This document shows positions 1 to 57,108 of a stretch of 64,000 nt of DNA, piece by piece; the first letter of the stretch is position 1; each line of letters begins with the position of its first letter. The notes under the pieces are model-generated. The model saw only the letters and a list, made by a program, of their open reading frames with translations. It searched no databases and had not been told where the DNA came from. This stretch comes from Candidatus Iainarchaeum sp. GTDB lineage: Archaea > Iainarchaeota > Iainarchaeia > Iainarchaeales > JAGVWC01. The translations under genes were made by a program, and so were the position numbers. The stretch is from assembly GCA_018304465.1 (NCBI GenBank), contig JAGVWC010000010.1, positions 96,001-160,000 on the forward strand, written 5' to 3'.

Positions 1-639
1 GATTATTCTTCCGTTGGGAGTTCGAACGATATTTTGGGGGGCAAAATCGTCATGAATATAACGAATGTTAAACTGTCGGGGGAATGCAGCTGAAAATCTT
101 CCCCTTATCGCTCTGCCTTGCTTGGCTGAAAGTATCTTTTTTTGTTCGAGGAAAGAAATATATGCGTTAAATTCTTTTCGGAGGCTCCGGCGCATAAGAA
201 GGTTTTGAAATATTTTTTTCTGTGGTGAAACCCCGTGGAGGGAATGAAGGGCTTTGCTGATTTTTCGGGTATCCGCAATTGTTTCTGATTCTCGAAGGTC
301 GTTTCCGGGCGTGAATTCGGAAAAAACAACGTTCTTGTACCTCCCAATGACCGGTCTCACTGCCGCCCCCTGTGATTGCATCTGGTCGTGCAATCGTACC
401 CGTTGGCGAGGGCTTGCTTCTCGTCCGTAGCGATTTTGAAGCAAACGTGCACTAATCCTTCTGCCATCTGGAAATTGCAGGACAAAAACGTGCCCTTTTG
501 GAGAAAGCGGTTCAACAGAAACGGGCCGTTCTCCAAGGCTAATTTGTGCGATGTCCGAAAAGAAAGTGAGAGGACTCGTTATATCGCTTTTTTTGAATGC
601 ACGCTTCAGTGCATATTGAAGTCGTTTTCCCGCTTTCAT
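1..639 (-). CDS. Aminoglycoside phosphotransferase/choline kinase-like protein, 3' end runs off the window
   Basis: Not in ORF track (no stop in window). Manually translated open frame from ATG at 639: MKAGKRLQYALKRAFKKS...FSEFTPG...LHSLH...YIHDDFAPQNIV; HxDxxxxN catalytic loop of APH-type kinases. Confidence 0.75.
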   Translation of the reverse strand, partial: MKAGKRLQYALKRAFKKSDITSPLTFFSDIAQISLGERPVSVEPLSPKGHVFVLQFPDGRRISARLLQNRYGREASPRQRVRLHDQMQSQGAAVRPVIGRYKNVVFSEFTPGNDLRESETIADTRKISKALHSLHGVSPQKKIFQNLLMRRSLRKEFNAYISFLEQKKILSAKQGRAIRGRFSAAFPRQFNIRYIHDDFAPQNIVRTPNGRII

Positions 640-704
640 GCTCACAACTAGACATACTTTTATGAATAAAATCTTTTCTTTGCGGAAACGGCGGTCCAAT
701 CGGC

Positions 705-750
705 ATATTATCTAGACGTGTTCTGGTTAATCGTCAGTTCATCATCGGCC
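705..750. repeat. 46-bp imperfect repeat copy 1, containing palindrome TTATCnAGA-N5-TCTnGnTAA
   Basis: 37/46 ungapped identity by manual alignment to 2465-2510. Confidence 0.8.
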
Positions 751-789
751 GTTCAATGTTGTATGCAAAGGAATTTTAACAACTATTTT

Positions 790-1014
790 TCATTCAAGCA
801 GCCTAAAGAATTCGTCTTTGTTCATACGCAAGTCTTCTTTAATGATTTTGGTCAGCAAATGGGGGCCGATGGGTTCGTTTCCATGCACAGGAACTGACGT
901 CTTGCGTCCATCCGGATGCTCGAACCGATAATGGCTTCCACGTGAACGCGTTTCGACAAAACCAAGTTTTTTGAGTGCACGAAACAAATCGCGTGGCGAC
1001 AAGGTTTGGGTCAA
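790..1014 (-). CDS. hicA: HicA-family toxin (mRNA interferase)
   Basis: 74 aa, LKKLGF..R.RGSH..F.HPDGR.T.VPVH signature. Confidence 0.93.
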   Translation of the reverse strand: MTQTLSPRDLFRALKKLGFVETRSRGSHYRFEHPDGRKTSVPVHGNEPIGPHLLTKIIKEDLRMNKDEFFRLLE

Positions 1015-1017
1015 AAA

Positions 1018-1227
1018 TTACACCCGAACGATCTGGATTCCCACAAAATCAGTTTTAACATCGACAGGCGCGTCTTCAAGGCACAACAAGATGACTTCCT
1101 TGACGCGTTCAATAAGCGCATCCATGGTTTTGGCTTGGGTATGGCAACCCTGTAATTCAGGAACATCGGCTACGAGCCAACCCGCTTCATCCTGCTCGAT
1201 AATGACTTTAAATTCCCTCGACATCAT
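1018..1227 (-). CDS. hicB: Short HicB-family antitoxin (no DNA-binding domain)
   Basis: 69 aa, VIIEQDE.GW.VA.VPEL.GCHTQ.KT.D.L..RVKE.I.LCLE signature; 3 nt upstream of hicA. Confidence 0.92.
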   Translation of the reverse strand: MMSREFKVIIEQDEAGWLVADVPELQGCHTQAKTMDALIERVKEVILLCLEDAPVDVKTDFVGIQIVRV

Positions 1228-1451
1228 TTCACATTAAAAATAACCCCAAAACAATATAAAAACGGCTCTTTTTCGGCAAACAACGACTATGAATATTTGC
1301 CCAGATTAAAAGAAAAAAGTATTACAGAGAATCACCGGTGTTCTCGGACTATTTCGACCACTGAATTAGTCAAACAAAGAAAACCCAATGATTCTTTTAT
1401 GAATAATAGGAATCTCCATTGCATATGCCGGCATTTAACTTGCCGGTCGCT

Positions 1452-1601
1452 TTAAATCTTGTCAGGAGCATTTTGGAGCGATTTCGCACACTTTTCTTTC
1501 CAGTATACGCGTTCTTCCAGAATCCACTGTTTTTCTTTTTCCAGTTCCGCCAAATCAATCTTCAAAAGCTTCAACCCTTCTTGCATAACAGCACTCTGCA
1601 T
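1452..1601 (-). CDS. Small hypothetical protein (49 aa), possibly a remnant
   Basis: Manual translation MQSAVMQEGLKLLKIDLAELEKEKQWILEERVYWKEKCAKSLQNAPDKI; protein-like amphipathic helix; below the ORF track cut-off. Confidence 0.35.
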   Translation of the reverse strand: MQSAVMQEGLKLLKIDLAELEKEKQWILEERVYWKEKCAKSLQNAPDKI

Positions 1602-1718
1602 CAACAATATCTACAAACGAAGTTTAACCTTTGTGTGATTACAAAAGAAATGGAGCGGATGAGCAAACGAATCTAACACCCCATCGTTTACCCAATTATG
1701 GTAAAAAAGAAAATAAGA

Positions 1719-2396
1719 TTATTTTTTTCGTAGATGAAAAAATTTACAGATCAGTTGGTTACCGACCCCCATACCTAAGAACGCCCCCTTGAGCACTTCA
1801 AATCCCAGTTCTTCTAGCCTCTTTTTTTGTTGGTTAAGAAGATCGAAATCCGATCCTCGCAGACCGTACAAGTTACCCACTTCTTGATTGACCAACAATT
1901 CGCCTCCCGACAGGAGAATTCGATGCGCTTCTTTGACAGAAGATTCAAAATCACTGTGTGTCAATCCAAAGTACGAGTAAATCAAATCGAAATGATTGGC
2001 TGGAAAACGGGTTTTTTCCGCATGAGCGACGCGAAAGGCGACCGTCCGGTATTTTTTCCAAGAATCCAATCGCTTCAAACTCAATCCATGCGCCTTAATA
2101 TTCGGAAAATCTGCGGCCAGTTGGGAAATCGCTTCTCCGTCCAAACAACCGAGATCCAAGACGCGAATTTGGCGTGTTCCCGCGCACATTTGAAGGTTTT
2201 GAACTATTGAGGAAAACTTTGCTCGAAAATCCGATTCGATAGCCCGAAGCGGGGTTCTTCTGACACTCCACAAATCAGACGGCGAACCACCATAACGAAG
2301 CGATTGCCAATCTTTCTTCCGGTCTTGGCGAAGTCGTTTCCCCAATCGTCGCCGCTTTAAAGCGTCTTCAGGACTACGTGGCTTTCGGAAATTCAT
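1719..2396 (-). CDS. Class I SAM-dependent methyltransferase with basic N-terminal extension
   Basis: VLDLGCLDG motif I, FPANHFDLI, HRILLSGG; start chosen at ATG 2396 (MNFRKPRS...) downstream of TTTATAAT. Confidence 0.85.
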   Translation of the reverse strand: MNFRKPRSPEDALKRRRLGKRLRQDRKKDWQSLRYGGSPSDLWSVRRTPLRAIESDFRAKFSSIVQNLQMCAGTRQIRVLDLGCLDGEAISQLAADFPNIKAHGLSLKRLDSWKKYRTVAFRVAHAEKTRFPANHFDLIYSYFGLTHSDFESSVKEAHRILLSGGELLVNQEVGNLYGLRGSDFDLLNQQKKRLEELGFEVLKGAFLGMGVGNQLICKFFHLRKK

Positions 2397-2464
2397 GCAG
2401 AAAAAAGAAGACAAGAGAAATTATAAAACCAGAAGAGTACTGGATGAGCACAGAACCGAATTTT

Positions 2465-2510: not shown

Positions 2511-2536
2511 ACAACCAAAGTTATCGGAAAAAAAAA

Positions 2537-2931: not shown

Positions 2932-4023
2932 TCATTTCCACTTTAAACGCTGGCGAAAACGCGAAAACGAACCCGATTCGATCTCTTCGCGGATACGTGT
3001 CATCAAGTGCTGGATGAAAAAAAGATTGTGAAACGACAAGTACTTCATGCCGTTTTCCTCCCCCGTCCGAAACAAATGATGCACATACGCGCGCGAATGC
3101 GATTCGCACACAAAACACGCGCACTCGGAATCAATCGGCGACAAATCAAACCGATGCGACCTGTTCGCCAAATTAATCCGGCCTTTACGGGTAAACGCCA
3201 AGCCATGCCGGCCGGTTTGCGTCGGAAACGCGGAATCAAAACAATCCACTCCCAGCGAAACCGCCATGACCAATTGCTCCGGCGTGCCAACTCCCATCAA
3301 ATACCGCATTTTTTCCGGATCCATCTCTTTCGTGTCGATCGGAACCATTTTTTCCACCCAATGACTCGGCTCGCCGATCGCAAGCCCCCCCAAGGCCAAA
3401 CCGTCAAACGGAAGCGAATTCATCAATTCCGCGGATTTCTTTCTGAGTTTCGCGTTTGTTCCGCCTTGCGCGATTCCAAACAACAACTGCCGCTTGTTTT
3501 CATGCGCATCCAAACACCGTTTTCCCCATTCAAACGTCCGGTGCATGGATTCGGTCAACCGCGCGATCGATGAACCCGGAAGCGGCATGTCATCCAAACA
3601 CATCGCCACATCGCTTTTCAACCGGTTCTGAATCACCATGGCTTTTTCCGGCGTTAACACATCCAATGCCTGATCAAACGGATTTCGAAACGTCACGCCG
3701 CGATCATCGATCTTTTGAAAAAACTCGGGGCGAATCACCTGAAAACCCCCGGAATCCGTGAAAATTCCGCGATCCCAGCCCACGAACTTGTGCAATCCCC
3801 CCGCTTTTTTCACCACGTCTAAACCCGGGCGCAAAGAAAACACGTAACTATTCGAAATAAACGCTTCGATTCCAATGGATCGCAATTCTTCCATCGAAAC
3901 CAGTTTCACGGAACCCTTGGTCGCCACCGGCATGAAAAAAGGCGTTTTGATTTTGCCATGCGCCGTGGTTAACGTTCCCACGCGGGCGTCTTTGTCCGAC
4001 ACGCCCAGCGAAAACGCGTTCAT
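2932..4023 (-). CDS. tgt: tRNA-guanine transglycosylase, bacterial/queuosine type
   Basis: TPFFMPVAT, TDSGGFQ, GIAQGG, GGLAIGE, RYLMGVG, GVDCFDS, Zn site CACFVC...HN; 363 aa with no C-terminal PUA domain. Confidence 0.92.
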   Translation of the reverse strand: MNAFSLGVSDKDARVGTLTTAHGKIKTPFFMPVATKGSVKLVSMEELRSIGIEAFISNSYVFSLRPGLDVVKKAGGLHKFVGWDRGIFTDSGGFQVIRPEFFQKIDDRGVTFRNPFDQALDVLTPEKAMVIQNRLKSDVAMCLDDMPLPGSSIARLTESMHRTFEWGKRCLDAHENKRQLLFGIAQGGTNAKLRKKSAELMNSLPFDGLALGGLAIGEPSHWVEKMVPIDTKEMDPEKMRYLMGVGTPEQLVMAVSLGVDCFDSAFPTQTGRHGLAFTRKGRINLANRSHRFDLSPIDSECACFVCESHSRAYVHHLFRTGEENGMKYLSFHNLFFIQHLMTRIREEIESGSFSRFRQRLKWK

Positions 4024-4538
4024 TTAAGCGACCCCAAAAACCGCTTTAAACTACTCAACCACACCCGGCCATAATGATCCGGCAACAAATACCGCTGGCC
4101 AACCAACTGCCCGACTTTTTTCTCGGAAATTCCCAACGCCAAACCCACGGCTTTTCGGCTCAACACCGCAGACGCGGCTTTCGGAACCGCGGACGCGACA
4201 TTTTCCCGCGCTTGTGCGATCGAAACCCGCGGATTCAAATCCGAAAAAAAAACCAATTTTCGAACTGGGGCCTTCAGCGTGCCTTTTCGCAGAAAACTAA
4301 CAAACTCGTTTGCAACGGAAGACGGAACCAATAACCGGTGGTTTGTTCCCCTTTTTTCCGAATATGAACCCAAAACGGTTCTTGGAAGACGCGGGTTCTG
4401 CATTTTTTTCCGGATAAACGCTTCGATATGCGCGGCACGCACGCGAAAATTGATTTTTTGAGCCGCTTGCAGGATCTGTGGAAGCGAGCGAAAACCCGCA
4501 GGCGTTTTTCGCGGCCCCTTCAATTCGAAAGCCTCCAA
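4020..4538 (-). CDS. Hypothetical basic protein, possible C-terminal HTH
   Basis: Overlaps alaX stop and tgt start (translational coupling); K/R-rich; LSRKAVGLALGISEKKVGQLV resembles an HTH. Confidence 0.6.
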   Translation of the reverse strand: MEAFELKGPRKTPAGFRSLPQILQAAQKINFRVRAAHIEAFIRKKMQNPRLPRTVLGSYSEKRGTNHRLLVPSSVANEFVSFLRKGTLKAPVRKLVFFSDLNPRVSIAQARENVASAVPKAASAVLSRKAVGLALGISEKKVGQLVGQRYLLPDHYGRVWLSSLKRFLGSLK

Positions 4539-5327: not shown

Positions 5328-5409
5328 TTTATAAAGTTTATTGCGTTTTATAGTAAATGCTTCAATAACCGGCTTATAACGCCGAAACGAGGCAGAGGAA
5401 AAAAGGAGG
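5328..5409 (+). promoter_or_regulatory. TATA box (TTTATAAA, 5328-5335) and Shine-Dalgarno (GGAGG, 5405-5409) of the small histone gene
   Basis: Consensus-like elements with appropriate spacing to ATG 5417. Confidence 0.55.
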
Positions 5410-5424
5410 AAGTTCGATGGCAGA
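5395..5424 (+). repeat. 30-bp exact direct repeat copy 1 (RBS plus start of histone gene)
   Basis: GAGGAAAAAAGGAGGAAGTTCGATGGCAGA, identical at 6450-6479. Confidence 0.93.
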
Positions 5425-5590
5425 TTTGGTAGTCAAATCAAAAGTCGCAGAAGTAATCCGAGGAAACGGAATGAACATGGCAGGAGACACGGTTGCTGCG
5501 CTCGACGGCGTTGTCGCGGACCTGTTGGCCAAAGCCGTTCAACGCGCCAAAGACAATGGACGCAAAACCGTTCGCCCAAGCGACTTGTAA
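5417..5590 (+). CDS. Short histone-fold protein (57 aa; truncated alpha-3, face-to-face/DUF1931-like class)
   Basis: Missed by ORF track. MADLVVKSKVAEVIRGNGMNMAGDTVAALDGVVADLLAKAVQRAKDNGRKTVRPSDL; RA..NGRKTV...DL histone signature, strong SD, downstream terminator. Confidence 0.9.
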   Translation: MADLVVKSKVAEVIRGNGMNMAGDTVAALDGVVADLLAKAVQRAKDNGRKTVRPSDL

Positions 5591-5634: not shown

Positions 5635-5719
5635 CTATTTCTTTTTCTTTAATCGATCAACCGTCACCGGCCGCAGGCATTCGAAAAACCATATTAACCC
5701 GTTATCTCTTTTTGATTAC

Positions 5720-6439
5720 ATGAAAAGAATCCTCCGGGTAAAAGCGGATCTGCACACTCCAAAAACCGTGAGCTATAACCTACACTCAAAACGAGGCTAT
5801 GAACCACAAGGAACCAAAGCGTTTGTTCCGTTGGGCACCCGTTTAACCAAAGGCCTGAGTCGCCCAGAAAAAGCCCATCAACTACGCGAACTTGCCGCCA
5901 ATTCAGACTATTTCATCAAACCCGTTAGCAAACGAAATCAAGAAATTCGGAAGTTTTTGACGCAACACGGAGTCCGGGTCGAAAAAATCATTGAAGACCT
6001 CAAAAACGGAACCAGCCTTTTTGAAAAAGAAGGCGCCGAACTGGGTTCCGCCGAAGGAATCCGGTTCTTTAAACGAAACCCAGTCCAATACACCCAAAAA
6101 ATCATCGACTTGGTCGCGCGGCTCATCGTACTCGAAGTCTCCCACACGCATTTGCACGTGGGCAACATTGCCATCACGGAAAAAGGAGACGTCATTTTAT
6201 TGGACTTAAGCCGCGCAACCCTTGCCGGCACCGGAAAACACCGGAAATCCCTTCGAAAAATCGTTGAAAAAATTCACCAGGAAAAAACCACGTTTATCCA
6301 AAGCTTCGTGCTATACGCTTTTCGAACACAACACGACCGTAATCCAACCGAATCCGAGTACATTGAAAAGGCCCGACAAATCGAAGACCAAATCCAAGAA
6401 CGAATGTTCGGGCTTGCCAAAGAATGGAAACTCGCCTAA
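5720..6439 (+). CDS. Kinase-fold protein (Kdo/RIO/APH-like) with atypical catalytic loop
   Basis: SHTHLHVGNI...ILLDLSRA corresponds to HxDLHxxN...DFG, with the catalytic Asp replaced by His. Confidence 0.65.
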   Translation: MKRILRVKADLHTPKTVSYNLHSKRGYEPQGTKAFVPLGTRLTKGLSRPEKAHQLRELAANSDYFIKPVSKRNQEIRKFLTQHGVRVEKIIEDLKNGTSLFEKEGAELGSAEGIRFFKRNPVQYTQKIIDLVARLIVLEVSHTHLHVGNIAITEKGDVILLDLSRATLAGTGKHRKSLRKIVEKIHQEKTTFIQSFVLYAFRTQHDRNPTESEYIEKARQIEDQIQERMFGLAKEWKLA

Positions 6440-6449
6440 TTCGCACGAG

Positions 6450-6479
6450 GAGGAAAAAAGGAGGAAGTTCGATGGCAGA
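6450..6479 (+). repeat. 30-bp exact direct repeat copy 2
   Basis: Identical to 5395-5424; followed by only a 27-codon frame. Confidence 0.93.
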
Positions 6480-11853: not shown

Positions 11854-12744
11854 ATGCCCCCCAGGTACATGACCCAAAAGTTTCGAAACCACGCGCGTGA
11901 AATCATCGAACAAAGCCGGCGCACCGGCGAAAACGCGTTCCAACAACTCTTCGGAAACGAACACGCCTCCAAAACCCCACATGGAATGTACAAGCAACTA
12001 AAATTACCTCAACACCAAATCGAATTGCTCGAACAAGACCGATTACGACACACCGAATACCCGGACAAAACACGGGAATGGCTCACCTGGATCGCCCGCA
12101 AGCGACTCGAACAAAGAAACGCCGCTTTGAAAAAACAACAACGAACCAAAAAAACAAAAACCCAAAAACAGGGCAAAACCCTGCCACCCAACACCAGGGC
12201 CCCGCGTCGAACCCCTTCGTCCAAAACACCGATTCCAACCGCGCGCATTTCGACTCCCAAAGAACACGCCTTGGACGGTCTTCAAACCGCGCTTGCGGCG
12301 TATAACAAGAATCCCACGCCGGAAAATTTTCGCGCCTTAAACAGTCACCTCACCCACATGCGATCCCACGACCAAGCAGTCGCGGCCACATACGAAGAAC
12401 TTATGGATGAAATTTATCGGCGCGCACATCCGGCGCCCGAAAAGAAAACGGTTTCAAAACCCGTGCAACCCACCCCCAGCCCACGACCTTTCACACCCGT
12501 GGCCGCCCAACAAACTCAACCGGCCCTGTCACCGGTGCGAACACCCGAGGACACCCTGCGCGAAAAATGCAGCGGGGCCATCAGCGCTTTTTTGAAAAAC
12601 CCGAATCTTGACGCTTACGCCGCGATTCAACAAGCCATTGCCACCTTGGCCGCCACCAACCCCACCCAAGCCCAGGCATACCAGACCTACATTGGAAAAG
12701 AAATGTGGCGCCGCGGATGGCTCGAAAGAGATTATAAAAGATAA
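11854..12744 (+). CDS. Hypothetical basic, Pro/Thr-rich protein with a duplicated helical module
   Basis: Long ORF with genome-typical codon usage; two ~52-aa similar modules. Confidence 0.7.
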   Translation: MPPRYMTQKFRNHAREIIEQSRRTGENAFQQLFGNEHASKTPHGMYKQLKLPQHQIELLEQDRLRHTEYPDKTREWLTWIARKRLEQRNAALKKQQRTKKTKTQKQGKTLPPNTRAPRRTPSSKTPIPTARISTPKEHALDGLQTALAAYNKNPTPENFRALNSHLTHMRSHDQAVAATYEELMDEIYRRAHPAPEKKTVSKPVQPTPSPRPFTPVAAQQTQPALSPVRTPEDTLREKCSGAISAFLKNPNLDAYAAIQQAIATLAATNPTQAQAYQTYIGKEMWRRGWLERDYKR

Positions 12745-14968: not shown

Positions 14969-15718
14969 ATGACACGGTCCATTTTCAAAAAAATCATCGC
15001 TTTGCGCACACCGCTTCGCGGAATGGTTCCAAAAATCCGAATCCAATACCTCGTCCCGGCCAAAACCGCGTTTGGAAGACGAATTCGTCGCCTGGACCGA
15101 TCACAGCCATCGCATAGCCGCGAACTGGCCACCCGAAAAATCGTGTTGCCGATGGCCAAAACCATTTTGGGTTCGTACATGGCGGGATTATTGTTGGTCG
15201 GAAGCGCGCAAACCAGCATCCGCGCGGCGCAACACAATCCGATTCTTCGCTTGTCCAAAAAAGAAGAAAGCGACGTCGACTTGGTCGTTGTGTCCCCTCA
15301 CCGATGCGACTCCTTCGAATTCTTGAATCGATTCCACCGGTTTTCAAAAGCGGTTCACGAAACGTTTTTGCAACACGGAATTCCGTTCGAACCCCACGTC
15401 ATGTACCGGTTGCTTCGACACCCGCCGCGCTCAATTGAAGCGGTCCGGCAGCTCGAGCTCGTGCCGCCCGACGGACCGCGGTTGAAAAACCGCCTCAAAA
15501 GCCCGTTTCAAATTATTTACGGAAAAGAACTTCAGCTTGCCGTAAACGAATTTTTTTCGACCGAAGAACAAGACGAGGTTCGATTGCAGATGATCCAGCG
15601 AAAAATGAAAAAACTTCCGTTCAAAGTCAAACGACGCGCCAAGCGCAAGGCCCTAAACGAAGCCGTCCGAAAAATCCAGAACCGAAGACGCGTCCAACGC
15701 GCAAACGGCGAACAATAA
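14969..15718 (+). CDS. Nucleotidyltransferase-fold (Pol beta-like) protein, highly basic
   Basis: LLLVGS...SDVDLVVV (GS...DxD); start at ATG 14969. Confidence 0.65.
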   Translation: MTRSIFKKIIALRTPLRGMVPKIRIQYLVPAKTAFGRRIRRLDRSQPSHSRELATRKIVLPMAKTILGSYMAGLLLVGSAQTSIRAAQHNPILRLSKKEESDVDLVVVSPHRCDSFEFLNRFHRFSKAVHETFLQHGIPFEPHVMYRLLRHPPRSIEAVRQLELVPPDGPRLKNRLKSPFQIIYGKELQLAVNEFFSTEEQDEVRLQMIQRKMKKLPFKVKRRAKRKALNEAVRKIQNRRRVQRANGEQ

Positions 15719-18209: not shown

Positions 18210-18419
18210 GTGGGAGAACTACCTATCGCCGCGGTTGACCGTATCATCCGCAAAGCAGGGGCCGATCGGGTCAGCGAAGACGCCGCCGCCGCACTGGCCG
18301 AAATTCTCGAAGAACGCGGAATCGAAATCGGAAAACAAGCCGTGCAACTCGCCAATCACGCCAATCGCAAAACCATTACGGACGCCGATATTCGCCTTGC
18401 GGTCAAGGGAATGCATTAA
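18210..18419 (+). CDS. Archaeal histone (HMf-like)
   Basis: ELPIAAVDRIIRKAGADRVS.DA...LAEILE...A..LA.HA.RKTI...DI.LA. Confidence 0.97.
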   Translation: MGELPIAAVDRIIRKAGADRVSEDAAAALAEILEERGIEIGKQAVQLANHANRKTITDADIRLAVKGMH

Positions 18420-19306: not shown

Positions 19307-19885
19307 ATGAATAAGAAAGGAATGGACATGGCAATCCAGATTTTTGTCGTTTTATTCGTACTCTTGGCGGTCGCCATGCTGGTACTACGACTGGTTTCGG
19401 AACAAACCCAGTCCCAAATCAAAGTCATCAACGAAGAAGCCAAAAAAGCCGAAATGTCCAAGATCAAAGCCGAATGCGACCAAGCCTGCGTCAATTGTGA
19501 CAGCCCCCAGGCCCAAGTGGGGTTTTGTCTAAAACTCATTCAATCCAGTTTATTCGAAGCCAAAGGCGCCATGGATTTTGACGGCGACGGCTTTGCCAAC
19601 GCGTACGTGGAAGAACAAGTCGGACAATACACCGGCGGACTCTACGGATTATGCGAAGACCAGATTTACTGCTCGCAAATTTCGCCCTGTAAATGCGGAA
19701 ACCGCACCTTGGACATGCGCAATTGCTTTAACGTGATCTGCGACTATTGGGAAAAACAAGGCGCGGACATTCCGATGCTGATGCAAAAATTCTTTCCGGC
19801 CCCCACCTGTGATATGAGCGACGAGGAACTCCAACGCCACTGGATCGTGAATTACCAGCAACTTATGTCCTGCGGAAGCGCGTAA
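19307..19885 (+). CDS. Type IV pilin-like protein, class III signal peptide, Cys-rich
   Basis: MNKKG|MDMAIQIFVVLFVLLAVAMLVL. Confidence 0.85.
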   Translation: MNKKGMDMAIQIFVVLFVLLAVAMLVLRLVSEQTQSQIKVINEEAKKAEMSKIKAECDQACVNCDSPQAQVGFCLKLIQSSLFEAKGAMDFDGDGFANAYVEEQVGQYTGGLYGLCEDQIYCSQISPCKCGNRTLDMRNCFNVICDYWEKQGADIPMLMQKFFPAPTCDMSDEELQRHWIVNYQQLMSCGSA

Positions 19886-19900
19886 TGATTCCTTGATTTT

Positions 19901-20320
19901 ATGGAACAAGCCATTTGGTTTTATGTGGGCATCATCGGAGCCATTGTCGGACTCGGATTACTGGCCTCGGTCGTTTTGATCAACGAAAACGCGTCCAAAC
20001 ACCAAGTCGCCCAGAACAGCATCCGGTTGCTCGAACAAAAATGCAATTTCGTCTGCAGTTCCGATTTAGATACCTTGCAATCGGTCGATGTCGAATTGTC
20101 CAGCGGAATGGTCATGTACAGCAATCAAACCGCGCTTTGCATCGCGCTTCAGGACAAGCAATACTGCCGCCCGTGCAACTGCAAAATAACCGATTCCAAC
20201 AACGCGAATTTTCGATTCGATTTGAACACGAGCGAAGCCGTCGAATTGTTTTCCACCCACACCTTCAACTGCAGCTTTGAAAAAAACATAGGCGGGGTTT
20301 TGCTTGCGTGCGCGGGGTAG
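19901..20320 (+). CDS. Pilin-like protein (N-terminal TM, Cys-rich head, no basic leader)
   Basis: MEQAIWFYVGIIGAIVGLGLL; C..VC...C....C..C.C; in-frame stops just upstream. Confidence 0.7.
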   Translation: MEQAIWFYVGIIGAIVGLGLLASVVLINENASKHQVAQNSIRLLEQKCNFVCSSDLDTLQSVDVELSSGMVMYSNQTALCIALQDKQYCRPCNCKITDSNNANFRFDLNTSEAVELFSTHTFNCSFEKNIGGVLLACAG

Positions 20321-20693
20321 CTCGGTCATCCCGGTGTTCGTCTGGATCACGATCCTCATTGTCACGATCGCGGCAAGCTACTGGTACTTATCCAAATTTT
20401 CAAGCGAAAAAAACGATTTCGAAAAAATCCAAAACGATTTGACGATTTTACGCAAAATGGTGGACGACGGATGCCAATCCGTTTACTATCAAGTCAGCTT
20501 TAACCCCGTGACGGAAACCGGCGACTTGAACATCACCAAAAACGCGATCTGCATGAATCTTCGTACATTATCGCGCTGTCAAACCCCCGTGTGCGTACAC
20601 CCGCTCACCGATGCGAATATCAACCTTTCCGACATTCGACAAATCACCGTGATCAAAAATGACACCAACACGATTACCATCACCGCAAAATAA
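20304..20693 (+). CDS. Pilin-like protein, class III signal peptide
   Basis: MRARG|SSVIPVFVWITILIV; overlaps both neighbours. Confidence 0.72.
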   Translation: MRARGSSVIPVFVWITILIVTIAASYWYLSKFSSEKNDFEKIQNDLTILRKMVDDGCQSVYYQVSFNPVTETGDLNITKNAICMNLRTLSRCQTPVCVHPLTDANINLSDIRQITVIKNDTNTITITAK

Positions 20694-21141
20694 GGGAATC
20701 TTCGAAATTCTCTCCACATTTTTCCTAGTCATCACCATTCTCGTCGTGGTCATCGGACTGTTGTTCGTGAACGCGTTTGTCATCGGAAACGAAAACGAAG
20801 TATACCGAAAACTCGAAGTCCTCGACATCGCCAACGACGTCAAAAAAAGCGTCGCGGAATGCTTCGGCCCCATCACCCCCGCGAAAATGACGGACACCGC
20901 CTTAGGGGAACGCTGCTTGAACGCGATCAAAGCCGATGGCAAAAACCGCCTAAAAGGAATCAAAATCGAGGAACTAGAATTTCTTTCCTGCACCGCCCGA
21001 ACCGCGGAATTCGGATCCGCGACCAACTGCGCGCCGGACGGCGACCGATACGTTTTTTTGGTGCGCGTGGAAGAAGGCGCGATGTCGTGCGCCGCACGAC
21101 TCGAATTGTGTCTTCATAAAACCGGGGGGGTTCGTTCTTGA
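20659..21141 (+). CDS. Pilin-like protein, class III signal peptide
   Basis: QNKG|IFEILSTFFLVITILVVVIG. Confidence 0.75.
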   Translation: MTPTRLPSPQNKGIFEILSTFFLVITILVVVIGLLFVNAFVIGNENEVYRKLEVLDIANDVKKSVAECFGPITPAKMTDTALGERCLNAIKADGKNRLKGIKIEELEFLSCTARTAEFGSATNCAPDGDRYVFLVRVEEGAMSCAARLELCLHKTGGVRS

Positions 21142-23075: not shown

Positions 23076-23120
23076 ACCCCTGACCAAAAGTATTTTAATC
23101 GGAAAGAACAGAAAGTAGCC

Positions 23121-30245: not shown

Positions 30246-30291
30246 AAACTAAAACCCTCGAAATACTATCACAGTTGGAATATTAAAAGGT

Positions 30292-30702
30292 TTACGGCTC
30301 GACCACGATTTGTTTTCCCTCGCAATGCAGGCCCACGACCGCCGGAATTTGGATTCCAACGTCCAGTTTGATGTTGCAATCCGTGCAATAATTGTACTTG
30401 GCGAACAAATTCATCAAAAAATCCTTGTTCAAATCGCCTTTTGGTTCTGTAATGTAATACGAACCGCAATTCGCGTCCAGGTTGCCGAACTGGCAGGTTT
30501 CCCAGCAATGCTCGAGTTCGCCCGCAAACCGCGTCAAGGTCACCCGGTTCAATTGGCTTGGATCCGGCGCGCGGTTTGGAAAAATCAGACTCGATATCGT
30601 ATCGTAAATCTCACCGGGTTTTAAGCCGCCCAAAAACATGAGCATGAGGCTCCCGACCACGATCGCGGACATCAAAAAAATAACCAGTTCAATCGCCTGC
30701 AT
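30292..30702 (-). CDS. Pilin-like protein without basic leader
   Basis: MQAIELVIFLMSAIVVGSLML; CWETC..G....C head. Confidence 0.75.
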   Translation of the reverse strand: MQAIELVIFLMSAIVVGSLMLMFLGGLKPGEIYDTISSLIFPNRAPDPSQLNRVTLTRFAGELEHCWETCQFGNLDANCGSYYITEPKGDLNKDFLMNLFAKYNYCTDCNIKLDVGIQIPAVVGLHCEGKQIVVEP

Positions 30703-30714
30703 ACCATCAACCCT

Positions 30715-30807
30715 TCATTTGAGTTTCTCGAAAACAAACAAAATCACAAACGTGACAAACGCAAGCCCGATCATGACTTCGACTGCCAGCCAAAGCGCCC
30801 GGTTCAA
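30715..30807 (-). CDS. 30-aa single-TM microprotein
   Basis: Manual: TTG start overlaps the platform gene stop; MNRALWLAVEVMIGLAFVTFVILFVFEKLK fills the intergenic gap. Confidence 0.55.
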   Translation of the reverse strand: MNRALWLAVEVMIGLAFVTFVILFVFEKLK

Positions 30808-32681: not shown

Positions 32682-32694
32682 GTCAATCCCGCCA

Positions 32695-40294: not shown

Positions 40295-41596
40295 TTATTT
40301 GATGTGCTTTTGTCCCCACGTATCCAACGCGGCCTGTAACTGCGGATGAAACCGCGCGTAATCCGAAAGCGAAACTTTTTCCATTGCCGCCGAAACCGCT
40401 TGTCTTGCCGCCAACGCGCCGTCATGACTGCCGTTCGGATGACCATGGATTCCGCCGCCAATCTGAATGCAAATCTCAGACCCCAACAGGTTCATGACTT
40501 CCGGAACGTTTCCGGGGTGCAGTCCGCCGCTTGAAACCGGGATCACGTCTTTCATTTTTCCCCAGTCCTGACCCAGCAACCGCAAAGACGAATTGGCTTT
40601 CACGATTTGTTTTTGCATGGCGTTTGAAATCGCGAGCACTTCGGGTTTTGTTCCCGCCAGTTTTCCGATTCCCGTTCCCACATGAATGTTATCGGCACCG
40701 ATCAAACGAGCGCTTTTGGCAATCACGTACATGGAAACCCCGTGCCGCGGATTCCGCGTAAACGCCGAATGAAACGCGCGATGACAATACAACGCAAGCC
40801 CCAAATCATCGCATTCTTTCCGCAATCCTTGAACCGCGCTCCAGCCCGCCGTTAACAAATCCACCATCACATACGGATTGCCATACTCGGCCACCACGTG
40901 GGCGCGCTGGTACAATTCTTTTCCCGGCGCCGTCACGTTCAGCAAACACGCCTTGGCTTCGCCGGTCATTTTTTCGGCTTTTTCGGCTTCTTTCATACAC
41001 CATTTCACGCGATCCGAAAACCGGTTAAACGGCTGGCTTGTGAGGTTTTCGTCGTCCTTTAACAAATCCACGCCGCCGCTCCACACGTCAAACCCGATTT
41101 TGGCGTGTTCTTTGGATGTCATTCCGATTTTTGGTTTTGGAACGCACGCAAGCAACGGCCGCTTTTTAATTTTCATTCGTTTTCGAACGCCTTTCATTCC
41201 AAACTGCGGACCCGGAAAACTATTCAAGATTTTTGCCGGCCATTTCACGTCTTCCACACGAATGTTTTCAACCGCTTTCATGCCCATAATGTTTCCGGCA
41301 ATGGCCGAATAAATCTGGGAGATGTTTCCCGCTTCGAAATTATCCAACGGATACGCGACTTGAATAAAATTGCCTTGGATATCAAACACGGTGGCCGCGA
41401 TTTTCTGCACTTGCTTTAAACCAAGCCCTTTTACTTCGGTCCAGGTTCCCACGCTGGATTCTGCCGCAACCGCGCCTGCCGCACGTTTGATAGATTCGCC
41501 TTTCATCGGTTCGATGTAAAACAAACAAACCAATTCGTCTTTGCCGGGTTTGTGGGACAAATTCACGAAATTTTCATAGACTTCTTTGAACGCCAT
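40295..41596 (-). CDS. rbcL: Form III ribulose-1,5-bisphosphate carboxylase
   Basis: AAESSVGTW, KPKIG, GGVDLLKDDE, HRAFH, HVGTGIGKL, SGGLHPG, QIGGG: complete catalytic set. Confidence 0.95.
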   Translation of the reverse strand: MAFKEVYENFVNLSHKPGKDELVCLFYIEPMKGESIKRAAGAVAAESSVGTWTEVKGLGLKQVQKIAATVFDIQGNFIQVAYPLDNFEAGNISQIYSAIAGNIMGMKAVENIRVEDVKWPAKILNSFPGPQFGMKGVRKRMKIKKRPLLACVPKPKIGMTSKEHAKIGFDVWSGGVDLLKDDENLTSQPFNRFSDRVKWCMKEAEKAEKMTGEAKACLLNVTAPGKELYQRAHVVAEYGNPYVMVDLLTAGWSAVQGLRKECDDLGLALYCHRAFHSAFTRNPRHGVSMYVIAKSARLIGADNIHVGTGIGKLAGTKPEVLAISNAMQKQIVKANSSLRLLGQDWGKMKDVIPVSSGGLHPGNVPEVMNLLGSEICIQIGGGIHGHPNGSHDGALAARQAVSAAMEKVSLSDYARFHPQLQAALDTWGQKHIK

Positions 41597-49178: not shown

Positions 49179-49694
49179 TTATCGCGTTGGTTTTCGACGA
49201 TTCAACAACCCGTCCCATCGCAAGGATTCAAGTTCCATTACGAGCTGGAAAAATTTTCCTGGATTTGACGACGCCTCCAAAAACAACGGACGCATTTCAT
49301 GCAACTCGTTGCGAGCCCCGTCTTTTGAAGCCGTTTCCAGCCGGCCCACCAGCCGGTCCACTTCGGTTTTGAAACCGTTTCCATTAAGTGCGGCCGACAA
49401 CAACCGCGTCTTGGCCTCCAACAACGGCTCTTTTTCGAGTATTTCTTTGGGCGGACGCTCGGCCCCCAAATACCATCCGTTATGCATCACCAAGCGCAAA
49501 AGCGGGGCACCGAACCGATCTTCAAAAAACGCCAGCTGGTTCCGCGACAAAAAAAAACCGCGTTCCCGCGAAACCCGAAACCCGGATTTTCCATACGACG
49601 ACTTGTGAAAAACCGGCTTTGGAAACGGATCATTGGGCCCGGTTTTTTTTCCGAACGAAAACGAGGAAACGGGTTTTCGAACAGGCTTTTTCAT
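49179..49694 (-). CDS. Hypothetical basic protein
   Basis: MKKPVRKPVSSFSFGKK; fills the gap; TTTAATAT upstream. Confidence 0.6.
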   Translation of the reverse strand: MKKPVRKPVSSFSFGKKTGPNDPFPKPVFHKSSYGKSGFRVSRERGFFLSRNQLAFFEDRFGAPLLRLVMHNGWYLGAERPPKEILEKEPLLEAKTRLLSAALNGNGFKTEVDRLVGRLETASKDGARNELHEMRPLFLEASSNPGKFFQLVMELESLRWDGLLNRRKPTR

Positions 49695-49777
49695 TACAAC
49701 AAGAAACAATTCTGAATATATTAAACTTGCGGTGCCCGACCCCCATTCTTAAAGTACCCTTTTGTTGTTGTATTGTC

Positions 49778-50213: not shown

Positions 50214-50918
50214 ATGCCAAAAAAAATAACCGCACGCAAGCGAAAACCGATTACCCTTATGGATCTCGGTAGCGGACCGACCGCGGATACGGGATGGGAT
50301 CTCGCAGCCAACCGGACAAACAGGCCCGTTTCGAAACACGGGCGATTTGTTTCGGTGGATCTTGAACGGATGTTGCCCGTGAACTCCCGAGGACAATTGT
50401 TTACCCAGCCGCATCATTCGTTCCATCAAACCGATGTATGGGACCATTTTCGGAAAACCCGCTCAAATAGCGTAAAAGTAATCCAAGACTCATACCTACT
50501 TGTTTTTTTTTTAGTCGAAAAAACCTTGTCCGATTCCAAAATGCCGCGAACAGAACACGTTAGTGTGGATTCAGAAAGATACCTAAAACAAGTCCATCGG
50601 ATTCTGGTTCCAAACGGGCGTTTTACGATTTATCTCAACCCGATGTATGTCCCGACGGTTCGCAAAGCCCTTGAAAAAACCGGATTTCAGGTGCTGAGCG
50701 AAAAAACCCTCACAGAAGAAGAAATCATGAAAGGAAAATCCGAAACCGCCAAACGGAGACTGATCGAGGTTTCGCCACACCAGGATAGAATCGATGCCGA
50801 ATTCGCCGCGAGGGAAAAATACGAAATTTTTTTCAATGCACTTGGACACCCAGGAATAATTGACGCAGAAAAAATTCGGAGAACCGTCCGAATCAACGCG
50901 AAAAAACCGGCACGATAA
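50214..50918 (+). CDS. Divergent class I SAM methyltransferase-like protein with basic N-terminus
   Basis: LMDLGSG, VSVD, NSV..I, VHRILVPNGRF, LEKTGF. Confidence 0.7.
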   Translation: MPKKITARKRKPITLMDLGSGPTADTGWDLAANRTNRPVSKHGRFVSVDLERMLPVNSRGQLFTQPHHSFHQTDVWDHFRKTRSNSVKVIQDSYLLVFFLVEKTLSDSKMPRTEHVSVDSERYLKQVHRILVPNGRFTIYLNPMYVPTVRKALEKTGFQVLSEKTLTEEEIMKGKSETAKRRLIEVSPHQDRIDAEFAAREKYEIFFNALGHPGIIDAEKIRRTVRINAKKPAR

Positions 50919-50932: not shown

Positions 50933-51385
50933 TTATTTTCGAGAAAGATGCTTTTTCTTTTGGAATTTTTTCAGAAACGATTTTTCATTCATGTAACCGC
51001 GGCAGTTCAAAGCACCGCACGAACATTTTTCCAATTTATCCGAAATCAATTCATAATCCGCCGTAATTTCCTCGCTGGAAGAAATAGTTCGAACCGCGAC
51101 GTAAAAAATTTTCCCGCCCCGAACCGACACTCGAACATTGTTGTCACAGGAATGATTCACAAATTTCGATTCGTTTCCATGGATTCCATCCAGATCATGA
51201 TAGCGATCCAAATAGAAAATATAGGTGTCCAAGCCCGATTTTTCCCTGGCCTTGGCTTCTCGCTTATCGATTTTTTCACCCACGTACTCCATGATCACCG
51301 TTCCTTTTTTGATTTTTCGAAGCGCAAACATTCCTTTTCCCGCAATCGGAGAATCGCGCACTTCAAACAATGGTTTTGTCGTCAC
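50933..51385 (-). CDS. SET-domain protein-lysine methyltransferase with post-SET Zn site
   Basis: S.IAGKGMFA, EYVGE, KFVNHSCDNN, EEITADY, CSCGALNCRG; likely GTG start at 51385 (the longer ORF runs through the tRNA). Confidence 0.93.
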   Translation of the reverse strand: MTTKPLFEVRDSPIAGKGMFALRKIKKGTVIMEYVGEKIDKREAKAREKSGLDTYIFYLDRYHDLDGIHGNESKFVNHSCDNNVRVSVRGGKIFYVAVRTISSSEEITADYELISDKLEKCSCGALNCRGYMNEKSFLKKFQKKKHLSRK

Positions 51386-51450
51386 AGGTACCGATACAAG
51401 CAATGGAATTGGGTTTAAAAATGAATCAACAAATATGAAAAAAAGGAAAA

Positions 51451-51534
51451 TGCAGGGAGGCGGAATCGAACCGCCGAACGCACTAAGCGAAAGGATCTTG
51501 AGTCCTTCGGGTTTGACCGCTCCCCAATCCCTGC
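51451..51534 (-). tRNA. tRNA-Leu(CAA)
   Basis: GCAGGGA acceptor...AAGGA-CT-CAA-GA-TCCTT, long variable arm, GGCGG-TTCGATT-CCGCC, TCCCTGC-A. Confidence 0.95.
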
Positions 51535-51570
51535 AGAGGAAATACAATCCGAATGTAACAATGAATTCAT

Positions 51571-52251
51571 TCAGGGCAAGGCATAAAAACCTTGTTTTAG
51601 CCATTGCTCGAACTTCGCCAAGTGCTTTGGACTTCGGGGTTCAAGGATAGCGAAAAACGCTTTGGTATTCTTTTTTCCATATAATTCCACTTTATATGAA
51701 GGGACTGGATTTCTTTTCCTTGGCTTTCCAATAGTTAATCTAAAACAAAATCCGATCCGTTGAAGCCCTGCCTTAAGACCAAGCGCTAATTCAGGAGAAA
51801 CAGTTGTAAAGAAAACTCTTGGCCGATGCCGGTGCGTTTTTTTCCATAATACGGAAGACTTGTTATACGATTTTTGAAAATTGATACACCCATCCGTATC
51901 GAATAATCCACGTGCAAACGGAATAAACAGCTCAGAATTTGATAAAACAAAATCAGGTACTTTTGCTATACGGGCTTTTTTTCCTATTGGTGCCCCAGCA
52001 GCGATAAATTTTTCAATGATCTTTCTTTGACCAATCATCACCCCATACGTCCCCCAGTAAAGAAAATCTCTGGGAAAAACGTCAAAGTCAAGCGATTTTT
52101 TGAACAATTCTTTGATGCGACCCAGGTAATATTCTTTTTCATCTTTTGGATTCCCTGTAATCCACATGGTAATCCCCGTATTCCCACGGCTCATCCACCC
52201 ATCACCAGTGAAAGCACCATACAGTTCCGCAAACTCGGGCGTGGTGTTCAT
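51571..52251 (-). CDS. Free-standing double-motif LAGLIDADG homing endonuclease-like protein
   Basis: FAELYGAFTGDG and FARGLFDTDGC motifs; AT-richer codon usage. Confidence 0.88.
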   Translation of the reverse strand: MNTTPEFAELYGAFTGDGWMSRGNTGITMWITGNPKDEKEYYLGRIKELFKKSLDFDVFPRDFLYWGTYGVMIGQRKIIEKFIAAGAPIGKKARIAKVPDFVLSNSELFIPFARGLFDTDGCINFQKSYNKSSVLWKKTHRHRPRVFFTTVSPELALGLKAGLQRIGFCFRLTIGKPRKRNPVPSYKVELYGKKNTKAFFAILEPRSPKHLAKFEQWLKQGFYALP

Positions 52252-52365
52252 GCTACAAAAAAAAGAAAAACCTGCAAAGAATGTTTGCACGCACGTCATT
52301 GCCGGTGAATCGAAGCTGATTTCCCTAAAGTCGTTACATGCGCAAAATCCAAAAAAGTTGCTACA

Positions 52366-54240: not shown

Positions 54241-54274
54241 CAGAATGGAAAAAAGTGGTTAAAATGCCTTTTGC

Positions 54275-54880: not shown

Positions 54881-54886
54881 AACCCA

Positions 54887-56032
54887 TCACTCAATCAACA
54901 AAATATCCGAAAGCGAAGACGCGTGTCGGTTCTCGTTTTTGCGCACCACGCGATCAGAACCCATTCCGATTCCAAGGCCCGATACCCGAAACAAAATCGC
55001 TTCGGACGCGCGCGCGGAAACAACCGCGGTTTCTTCCAGTTTCCAACCTTTTTTTTTCAACCATTTTTTAAACCAACTCAGCAAACTTTCGTTGTCCAAA
55101 CAGGAGTCCACGGCAATGTAATCATCCAAAAGCAACCGATTTGCCAACGATTCCAAACGCGAAGATCCGCCGCCGCCAAGCAAAACCGTGTTAAACCTCC
55201 GCTGGCGAAGCTTTTCAAGGACTTCGGGCACGTTTTTTTTCGGTTCGTCGTTTTCCAACAAAACGCTTTCCGAAAACACGACGTTTTTGAACCGATCGGC
55301 CGTCAAACCCGATTTTTTCAACATGGTTTCAAGCACTTGCTCGGACGTCTTAGCCAATTCTTCCATGCTTCGCTCCTTGTGCACAAGCTCGCCCACATCC
55401 ACTTCCGCGACCCGTTTTCCGTGTCGAATCGCGTCAAGCAAAATCGCGACGTCGATTCCCCACTTGGTTTCAATCCGCAAAGCGGAAAGAAAACTTTTGC
55501 GGCAACAAAACTGGCCGCTTAACGGCTGGTCAATCTGCGTTCCGGGAAACAAAAGATTCATCATCGGACGCGCGGCCAAAACCGTCAAACGCCCGCGTTT
55601 ACGCGAAAAACTCGCCTTGACCAAATCCGCCTGCTTGTGCAACACCGGCATCGCCAACGCATTGATTTTTTCCGTCGGAAAATTCGACAAATCCGCGTCC
55701 AAAAACAACAGCACGTCATTGGACGCGTTCTCGATTCCAGACTTGATCGCGCGTCCTTTTCCAAAATTTTTCGAATGCGTTACAACCCGAACCCGCTCGA
55801 TTCCCGCGACTTGGGCCGCGGTTCCATCCGTACTACCGTCATCCACGACAATCACCTCGTTGACAAACCGAGACGCAAGACTCGACAACACCACCCGCTT
55901 GATGGTTTTTGCCTCGTTTAACGCCGGAATCACCACCGTGACTTTTTCATGAATGAGCCAGTCGGATGACTTGAACACCGCGCGATTAATGCCTTCCAGC
56001 ACCGACAACAAAGAATCCAAAAAACGATTCAT
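54887..56032 (-). CDS. GT-A glycosyltransferase (GpgS/MpgS-like) fused to a degenerate HAD-like domain
   Basis: VIPALNEA.TI, VVDDGS.D.T, FLDADL, GRLT.L.ARP, QPLSGQF, WGIDVAIL.D. Confidence 0.85.
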   Translation of the reverse strand: MNRFLDSLLSVLEGINRAVFKSSDWLIHEKVTVVIPALNEAKTIKRVVLSSLASRFVNEVIVVDDGSTDGTAAQVAGIERVRVVTHSKNFGKGRAIKSGIENASNDVLLFLDADLSNFPTEKINALAMPVLHKQADLVKASFSRKRGRLTVLAARPMMNLLFPGTQIDQPLSGQFCCRKSFLSALRIETKWGIDVAILLDAIRHGKRVAEVDVGELVHKERSMEELAKTSEQVLETMLKKSGLTADRFKNVVFSESVLLENDEPKKNVPEVLEKLRQRRFNTVLLGGGGSSRLESLANRLLLDDYIAVDSCLDNESLLSWFKKWLKKKGWKLEETAVVSARASEAILFRVSGLGIGMGSDRVVRKNENRHASSLSDILLIE

Positions 56033-56182
56033 AAAAAACCCCGCGAATGTAAGAAAGAAGCCAAAAACCATTAAAAAGACTCTCAAGCAAACAATCCCTA
56101 ACAGCCTTTTGATTAATCGATCAAAAGCCTGGGGAAAAAACCGCTTTTTGGGATTTTCGCCAGCCTTTTTCAAAAAGGCTGT

Positions 56183-56300
56183 GGGGCTGTAGTCTAGCCT
56201 GGTAGGACTCGTGCTTTGGGACAGCTTTTTTGCTGCGGCAAAAAACCTGGGAAAAACTGCAAACCAGCACGAAACCTGAGTTCAAATCTCAGCAGCCCCA
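56183..56300 (+). tRNA. tRNA-Pro(TGG) with 45-nt intron (56221-56265) at canonical position 37/38
   Basis: GGGGCTG/CAGCCCC acceptor, CGTGC/GCACG anticodon stem, strict BHB (TTTG/CAAA helix, GG|A and CC|A bulges, CAG/CTG closing), CTGAG-TTCAAAT-CTCAG. Confidence 0.95.
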
Positions 56301-56346
56301 AAACAATATCCGGTTTTAAAACACTCGTACAAGCAAGTAATTGCAC

Positions 56347-56419
56347 GGGGCCGTAGTGTAGCTTGGTATCACTTGAGGCTGGGGGTCTCAAAACCCGAGT
56401 TCGAATCTCGGCGGTCCCA
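56347..56419 (+). tRNA. tRNA-Pro(GGG)
   Basis: GGGGCCG/CGGTCCC, TGAGG-CT-GGG-GG-TCTCA, CCGAG-TTCGAAT-CTCGG. Confidence 0.95.
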
Positions 56420-56550
56420 AACATTTTTTTTCCGAAAAAAAGTCGCGAAAGATTTTTGTTTTCGCCCTTCTTTTTTAAAAAAACCGTTCGCAAACCTTTT
56501 TATCCACCAACCCCCCACAAAAATGCGGATCGACAAAAAAAGGATTTTTT

Positions 56551-57108
56551 ATGGCCAAAATAAAACGAACACGCCCCCCAAAAAGGCAGACAAGAAAAAG
56601 CACCGGACCCAAAATGCCGACTCGCAGGTCAACGGAACACGAAATCCGAAGGATGCTTCGTCGAGCCGCGCCCCGCGGGACCAGGGCAGCCGAGATGAAA
56701 AGCAGACGATTGGCTGAAAACCAAGCCATCGAACAAGGCCTTCACCAATTCTCAGCCGATCCGGTGATCGTTGCCATCCAAGAAAAAATCCAAAACCCCG
56801 ACGTATTCACCTTTGCATTTGGCGCACCTGAACTCAATCATATCGCGCTTGGACAACTAGACGAAAAAGAATACCGATACTTGGCTCAACAACACGGCGT
56901 CCGATTGAAAAAAGGACAATCCACCCCGTACCTGGACGGGCTAAAAGCCCAAACGCCTCACCAACCCGCCGCGACAAACGTGCCGGCACCCAAAGAAACC
57001 GCTTCGCGACGCCCCGCGCGTTTCGCTCGAAAACCAAAACTCGAACAAAAACCCATATTCACGGTTTTTAAAGAAACGCGAACCCAAATAAAACAGAGAA
57101 AAACATGA
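56551..57108 (+). CDS. Hypothetical protein with very basic termini
   Basis: MAKIKRTRPPKRQTRKSTGPK; ATGA overlap with proS. Confidence 0.7.
   Translation: MAKIKRTRPPKRQTRKSTGPKMPTRRSTEHEIRRMLRRAAPRGTRAAEMKSRRLAENQAIEQGLHQFSADPVIVAIQEKIQNPDVFTFAFGAPELNHIALGQLDEKEYRYLAQQHGVRLKKGQSTPYLDGLKAQTPHQPAATNVPAPKETASRRPARFARKPKLEQKPIFTVFKETRTQIKQRKT

Follow-up and report, generated by a model that had tools for sequence, protein, structure and literature searches.

Cationic orphan proteins with charged ends in the Iainarchaeota

Do unrelated genes scattered among the housekeeping genes of an archaeon encode a class of proteins recognizable by charge, and what might such a charge be for? The question is raised by a 64-kb stretch of Candidatus Iainarchaeum sp. 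(contig JAGVWC010000010.1, positions 96,001 to 160,000; hereafter the window), in which a preliminary description had singled out nine genes whose products begin with basic stretches lacking a signal peptide, and had taken these stretches as a possible shared leader for export or host delivery. The comparison of these genes with related loci indicates that an Iainarchaeota cationic orphan class exists and that its charge is beyond chance, independent of GC content and under selection. Rather than as a class with N-terminal leaders, it is best described as one of cationic orphan proteins whose ends are charged. It is real, lineage-wide and apparently undescribed, no account of it having been found in the literature searched, which was largely without subscription papers or supplements.

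Charge of rare genes across related loci

The comparison set comprised the best 80 of 196 GTDB loci, each of 20 kb, as ranked by their TFB, which is 84-93% identical to that of the window. Their labels name Iainarchaeum/Diapherotrites (33), Micrarchaeota (2), Thaumarchaeota (2), bacteria (3, probably by mislabelling) and archaea (40), and the set was treated as Iainarchaeota. Genes were called with a simple in-house caller; some entries are doubtful, and the TFB start is wrong in some loci. The called genes were clustered into families, and one representative per rare family was scanned against Pfam. Once membrane proteins, truncated genes and genes shorter than 120 aa had been excluded, 236 soluble families of at least 120 aa present in at most three loci were counted, of which 102 lack and 134 have a Pfam match. 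Net charge was computed over the first and last 30 residues (N30 and C30, respectively), with a main cut-off of +5 and a stricter one of +8; the counts for the Pfam-less and Pfam-matched sets were tallied by hand and compared by Fisher test.

The two sets differ at both ends of the protein. An N30 of at least +5 is found in 47/102 Pfam-less as against 25/134 Pfam-matched rare proteins (p 8e-6), and one of at least +8 in 18/102 against 6/134 (p 0.002). The corresponding counts for C30 are 42/102 against 23/134 (p 6e-5) and 25/102 against 8/134 (p 9e-5). Half of the six Pfam-matched proteins with N30 of at least +8 are weak nucleotidyltransferase, HD and GNAT matches, the sort of enzyme that the preliminary description had in view. 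Among soluble families present in at least four loci only 2/42 reach an N30 of +5, as compared with 63/189 singletons. Uncalled shadow open reading frames (ORFs) of the same loci, used as a control, attain this value in 28/261 cases and +8 in 4/261 (C30 of at least +8 in 8/261). A non-DPANN control gave 11/182 with N30 of at least +5; it consists of phage and plasmid genes rather than chromosomal orphans of free-living archaea, called with a length-only variant of the caller (10/133 in 150 of the 240 kb of phage SPN3US, 1/27 in the M. jannaschii plasmid and 0/22 in pNOB8). Hence, the proposal of a distinct basic orphan class standing out from its background is upheld.

Among rare soluble genes, those with a basic N-terminus number 18/57, 20/80 and 39/113 in loci going from low to high GC content, with lysine giving way to arginine; such a GC-independent rate combined with a shift from K to R argues for selection on charge. 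N-terminally basic rare genes occur in 41 of the 70 loci having any rare gene and are flanked by common genes on both sides more often than neutral rare genes (37/69 vs 28/110), which agrees with their earlier depiction as dispersed genes of fast turnover. Further, the signal is compositional rather than motif-based, as had been surmised: no motif beyond a proline at position 2 was found to be shared among the N-terminally basic proteins, this proline being present in 24/44 of the methyltransferases discussed below and in 19% of N-terminally basic rare genes, as opposed to 47/648 conserved genes. A candidate cross-family motif, MP-[VTI]-[YF]-G-K-G, was rejected, as it recurs in one methyltransferase subclade and, among the called genes, only in the methyltransferase of locus L077.

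What does not hold is the supposition that the signal is specifically N-terminal, given that C-termini are equally enriched and the protein bodies are basic too. In a second set of orphans the start is neutral, and it is the final 10-25 residues that are rich in K, R and P. Of the first 48 Pfam-less proteins, 10 are basic at both ends where about 12 would be expected, i.e., co-occurrence is at about the level of chance. Those termini that vary within conserved families have a mean charge of +5 per 100 aa, and may be acidic or basic depending on the family.

The nine window genes and their enzyme families

The nine genes of the window, along with the TATA-like boxes upstream of three of them, are as follows:

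1..639, minus strand: APH/choline-kinase-like gene, basic throughout; weak Pfam APH match (E 0.0057), N30 +5, pI 11.3; incomplete, its 3' end lying beyond the window edge
1719..2396, minus strand: divergent class I S-adenosylmethionine (SAM) methyltransferase with a cationic N-terminal extension; Pfam 2.7e-11, fold Z 18, predicted helix at residues 9-34, N30 +9
2421..2427, minus strand: TATA-like box 25-31 nt upstream of the methyltransferase ATG, consistent with a leaderless transcript
4020..4523, minus strand: orphan, pI 11.8; probably begins at a TTG that overlaps the stop codon of AlaX, the gene upstream
5692..5697, plus strand: TATA-like box 23-28 nt upstream of the kinase-like ATG
5720..6439, plus strand: Bud32/RIO/Kdo-type atypical kinase fold with a short, basic, low-confidence N-terminus; N30 +5
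11854..12744, plus strand: orphan, pI 10.2; P/K/R-rich basic segments internal, leader weak (N30 +3)
14969..15718, plus strand: pol-beta-type nucleotidyltransferase-like orphan; N30 +7, C30 +10
49179..49694, minus strand: orphan, N30 +6
49716..49725, minus strand: TATA-like box upstream of the ATG at 49694
50214..50918, plus strand: divergent class I methyltransferase-like gene with a basic N-tail of about 11 residues abutting motif I and a basic C-tail; N30 +3, with +6 within the first 15 aa
56551..57108, plus strand: orphan adjoining two tRNA genes; N30 +10, C30 +8

All nine ORFs lie at the coordinates and have the basic N-termini originally given for them, with pI values of 9.9-11.8; they show no significant similarity to one another (best cross E 0.04), and a hydropathy scan detected neither a hydrophobic h-region nor a membrane helix in any of them, all being classed as soluble. 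Thus, their portrayal as mutually unrelated, overall basic and signal-peptide-less proteins is borne out. There is no clear leader in 11854-12744, whose basic segments are internal; the gene at 4020 has an N30 of +3 as originally delimited (4020-4538), which rises to +7 if translation begins at the TTG at 4523. An N30 of at least +5 is attained by 6/60 window genes of at least 120 aa, all six belonging to the nine, and by 0/51 of the others, with the caveat that a SET-domain gene (see below) reaches +5 if its start is near 51385. The contrast in N-terminal charge between the nine and the other window genes (Mann-Whitney p 1.5e-5) is circular because the genes had been selected in the preliminary description. 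Beyond residue 30 the nine proteins retain a positive charge, of +4.1 to +14 per 100 aa, and several C-termini equal the N-termini in this respect, those of 14969, 50214 and 56551 being strongly basic. Five further soluble Pfam-less genes of the window (10514, 10944, 34405, 60205 and 60876) have N30 values of -1 to +4; therefore, the class does not take in every orphan. The codon use of the nine is less adapted than that of other window genes (p 0.004; GC at third codon positions 0.51 vs 0.59), and, other than for the methyltransferase at 1719, no relatives of these genes or of the SET gene were found in the 80 loci.

The suggestion that five of the nine have modifying-enzyme folds is supported, if unevenly so: in addition to the methyltransferase and the kinase, these comprise the nucleotidyltransferase (Atlas features 0.93, structural TM-score <0.5 by query), the weak APH match and 50214, which matches a methyltransferase family profile weakly (E 1.3e-4). 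As to the remainder, 4020 (also in its 4020-4538 form), 49179 and 56551 match nothing in Pfam, NCBIfam, PHROG or PADLOC and could not be placed in a family, and the sole match of 11854 is an uninformative NCBIfam model (E 0.013). PADLOC gave weak domain-level matches only, at E 1e-3 or worse.

The methyltransferase shares with class I SAM methyltransferases (Methyltransf_11/25) the Rossmann-like fold and motif I (Z 18.1, rmsd 3.1, 159 aligned residues), from which it differs in falling in a separate clade, in having about 30 extra cationic N-terminal residues and in lacking a close solved relative; the nearest are small-molecule, peptide or uncharacterized methyltransferases of at most 25% identity. 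A phmmer search with this protein recovered 309 proteins at E <= 1e-3, of which the best 150 were examined. A core-only tree of 109 columns, built by a quick method from 126 of 130 proteins of at most 320 aa, sets 68 of them apart as a clade (SH-aLRT 92). An N30 of at least +5, as counted from the labels, is seen in 52/68 members of this clade vs 5/58 of the remaining rows, and the median length of the part ahead of motif I is about 71 aa as compared with about 40 aa in the other 58, the difference corresponding to about 30 unalignable cationic residues. In 44 members chosen by eye, the segment preceding the first conserved tryptophan spans 19-54 aa and is 32% K+R; its charge per 100 aa is +24, that of the core +4.4. 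Members share only 20-38% identity with the window protein, and nearly all carry no taxon label. Two of the clade occur within related loci (L077 and L037), where ordinary methyltransferases start acidic or neutral. A word-index search for homologs returned the methyltransferase itself only, and with the alignment four proteins; the phage and plasmid collections searched gave no match, and the Atlas taxa are generic and uninformative on range.

The protein encoded by 5720-6439 has a Bud32/RIO/Kdo-WaaP-like fold (Foldseek E ~1e-6, TM-score 0.42-0.49). While the fold is common to these atypical kinases, the family differs from them in the catalytic loop. In active kinases this loop has the motif HxDxxxxN, whereas in all four family members a histidine replaces the catalytic aspartate, within a conserved HxHxHxGN loop. 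On account of this replacement the family may be one of pseudokinases or might use a different chemistry. All three relatives begin with K/R-rich residues. The notion of the leader as a family-specific addition applies to the methyltransferase clade but hardly to the kinase family, which has almost none. Neither the methyltransferase clade nor the His-for-Asp kinase-fold family has a close relative in the databases searched.

Possible roles of the charge

The Iainarchaeota would, on the reading proposed here, keep dispersed accessory genes of fast turnover, whose recognizable folds are mostly those of divergent modifying or group-transfer enzymes (for methyl, phospho, nucleotidyl and acetyl groups). 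Selection would hold their products cationic, and the charge would be placed in K/R-rich stretches that resist alignment, at either end of the protein or at both ends. Since unrelated divergent enzymes, scattered singly, conserve charge and not sequence, they resemble proteins of biological conflict, and could be conflict or interaction proteins. The charge might then function as an electrostatic address rather than as a cleaved signal peptide: the cationic stretches could bind polyanions, such as nucleic acid, an anionic membrane, or an acidic chaperone or translocase, and this binding would load the enzymes for a partner or competitor cell, or allow them to act there, at contact. We put forward such an address tentatively, as a serious possibility rather than a probable one, and the effector reading as a whole is plausible but unproven. 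Cultivated DPANN are reported to be contact-dependent ectosymbionts (10.1101/2023.02.24.529834), and a role of Saccharibacteria secretion systems in co-opting hosts has been the subject of speculation (PMC10633639).

Several observations weigh against an address for delivery. Export, cleavage, a partner machine and a host are all hypothetical, and the host dependence on which the original proposal leaned is uncertain for the Iainarchaeota, which may be free-living according to PMC10936187. Charge at either end and in the body, the mid-region having +6.4 per 100 aa in the N-basic and +7.6 in the C-basic set, is hard to reconcile with a directional translocation signal. The idea of a leader that is disordered or cleavable finds no support in the methyltransferase extension, in which AlphaFold predicts a confident helix at residues 9-34 (pLDDT 86-92 for residues 1-20) and to which some solved methyltransferases align from residue 10-25 on; because of both features, part of the modeled extension may be a substrate-binding lid. 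Additionally, the phmmer query included the leader and thereby favors basic matches. The basic stretch of the kinase amounts to a few residues (pLDDT <50 for residues 1-13), and its family is alignable from about residue 14. An amphipathic-helix signal was looked for and rejected, there being no excess over neutral rare genes (z 0.36 vs 0.24), and at least one housekeeping kinase (L057:3973) bears a similar tail.

Comparison with known systems helps to place these features. The genes are dispersed, divergent and patchy and encode modifying enzymes, and their terminal composition is distinct beyond chance, all as in an effector class; the signal, on the other hand, is not confined to one terminus. 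The Photorhabdus virulence cassettes (PVC) and other extracellular contractile injection systems likewise have a motif-poor terminal address of about 50 residues on unrelated enzymatic cargo, the N-terminal loading signals of PVC effectors having few conserved residues (PMC9054023); the passages on them do not describe these signals as cationic, and here the signal occurs at either end and has no known loading ATPase. No contractile injection genes were found among the window genes scanned. Substrates of VirB/D4 type IV secretion systems carry positively charged C-terminal tails, that is, a compositional cationic terminus on dispersed, fast-evolving proteins; here, half of the class is N-terminally charged, no coupling protein or channel of such a system was identified in the window, and export is only proposed. 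With Sec, Tat and class III signal peptides the likeness extends to the basic n-region but not to a hydrophobic h-region or membrane helix. The K/R/P-rich, poorly alignable cationic tails of ribosomal proteins, bacterial Ku and histone-like proteins are similar in kind, except that their bearers here are orphans and modifying enzymes without conservation, not conserved nucleic-acid proteins.

These last suggest the main rival, in which the proteins stay inside the cell and their cationic surfaces or tails tether them to the DNA, RNA or ribosomes of that cell, or else to the nucleic acid of invading viruses, for nucleoid packaging, RNA modification or antiviral action. This is possible, if on balance unlikely. 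The location of charge at either end and in the body, the predicted folded helix of the methyltransferase extension and the basic variable tails of ribosomal protein S8e are consistent with it, as is the fold of the kinase, Bud32 and RIO kinases being tied to tRNA and ribosome metabolism; a precedent is provided by the DNA-binding basic tail of bacterial Ku (PMC4889933). However, the nearest solved methyltransferases are not nucleic-acid enzymes, the PADLOC matches are weak only, the genes are dispersed rather than clustered in islands, and a housekeeping role leaves the extreme divergence and turnover unexplained. The narrower version of delivery, with a signal found solely at the N-terminus and recognized by the type IV pilus-like ATPase and platform at 30804-34383, is very improbable: although a FlaI/TadA-like ATPase is indeed present in the window, along with pilin-like genes, and the N-termini are enriched in charge, nothing ties this system to the class. 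The C-termini are equally enriched, the genes are unlinked to the pilus locus, and archaeal type IV pilus machines assemble membrane-anchored pilins and are not known to translocate cytoplasmic proteins.

The charge might also be non-adaptive, with weakly constrained, fast-evolving genes drifting basic in a small-genome lineage with a mildly basic proteome. Random ORFs have a positive net charge (about +2 per 30 aa), the conserved proteins of these loci have +3.7 per 100 aa, and small host-associated proteomes have been reported to drift basic in a manner tied to AT bias (PMC1905920). We consider this improbable, as 46% of the orphans against 11% of shadow ORFs have an N30 of at least +5, an approximately fourfold difference that widens at +8, the rate is independent of GC whereas the published drift follows AT bias, and the methyltransferase extension stays at 32% K+R among highly diverged members. 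Least to be expected, along with the pilus route, is an artefact in which spurious ORFs or starts placed too far upstream yield translated non-coding DNA. The simple caller used for the related loci, some of whose calls are doubtful, and the basic shadow ORFs of the window (11/32 at +5 or above) would permit it. Against this, a TATA-like box is situated 25-33 nt upstream of the called ATG, ahead of the basic stretch, in 27/70 N-terminally basic genes, as compared with 3/54 for the next in-frame methionine and 5-8/70 in off-phase windows, so that the true starts lie upstream of the basic segments and not downstream. In the window such phased boxes precede 1719, 5720 and 49179, while 14969 and 50214 directly abut same-strand upstream genes. 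Database copies of 1719 and 5720 begin at the same start, the Atlas entries for 14969 and 1719 are letter-identical, families and folds exist, and the C-tails end at unambiguous stop codons. Neutral rare genes likewise carry phased TATA boxes; hence, the promoter signal supports the starts only, and a special regulon was rejected.

A bolder extension of the address reading would have the Iainarchaeota as contact-dependent parasites or predators, with about half of the orphans being effectors addressed by cationic N- or C-tails via an undescribed archaeal delivery route; we regard this as rather unlikely. If true, a charge filter on DPANN genomes would predict an effector set, and the targets of the tails (nucleoid, ribosome or even eukaryotic nucleus) would point to the host. 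To our knowledge, no host of the Iainarchaeota has been reported, and the manipulation of partners by DPANN is largely obscure. Whatever the destination, a simple computed rule picks out the class and thus furnishes a concrete list of candidates and a testable address, while if only nucleic-acid binding or drift holds it would be a compositional feature of modest interest.

Neighboring genes and repeats

Three further features of the window adjoin the genes discussed above:

5395..5424, plus strand: perfect 30-bp direct repeat, copy 1, at the beginning of the histone-like gene (5417-5590) and its ribosome site
6450..6479, plus strand: perfect 30-bp direct repeat, copy 2, 10 nt 3' of the kinase-like gene
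50933..51385, minus strand: SET-domain gene (Pfam SET 2e-21), start uncertain; its C-tail is basic, the last 15 aa carrying +7

The SET gene encodes a lysine methyltransferase, here in an archaeon, with a Cys-containing post-SET-like end, and is a possible tenth member of the class; its true start lies downstream in the long ORF, because the latter overlaps the tRNA-Leu gene at 51450-51535. Beside this tRNA is a stand-alone LAGLIDADG-like gene with atypical codon use (51571-52299, minus strand). The repeat around the kinase-like gene has a counterpart in a perfect 24-bp repeat of locus L028 (8503/9266), each pair flanking a basic orphan and copying the edge of the neighboring gene, which hints at gene gain or loss by short-homology recombination or else at an assembly artefact. 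Direct repeats were rejected as a general mark of insertion, since a basic orphan lies between the copies in just 2 of the 12 pairs detected.

Elsewhere in the window, a HicAB-like toxin-antitoxin pair (790-1227, minus strand) occupies a lower-GC stretch between the APH-like and methyltransferase genes. There are two histone-fold genes, the short and divergent 5417-5590 and the canonical archaeal histone 18210-18419. A cluster of pilin-like membrane proteins spans 19307-25196, with the FlaI/TadA-like ATPase and probable platform gene within 29850-34383, and a RuBisCO large-subunit gene is found at 40295-41596 (minus strand). An Rfam tRNA match of 118 nt at 56183-56300 (plus strand), missed by ARAGORN, probably contains an intron.

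In the related loci, the cytidylate-kinase-family protein of L057 (3973-4650) has a K/A-rich N-terminal extension (+14) that is absent from the other members examined. Three proteins (L063 338-982, L072 689-1393 and L062 18-878) have a basic N-terminus that leads into a hydrophobic stretch rich in Ala and Gly, and one of them weakly matches the peptidoglycan hydrolase domain CHAP, which could hint at a bacterial partner. Directly 3' of TFB in L025, L044, L045 and L077 is a family of 60-70 aa proteins with C-termini of +14 to +16 in 30 aa.

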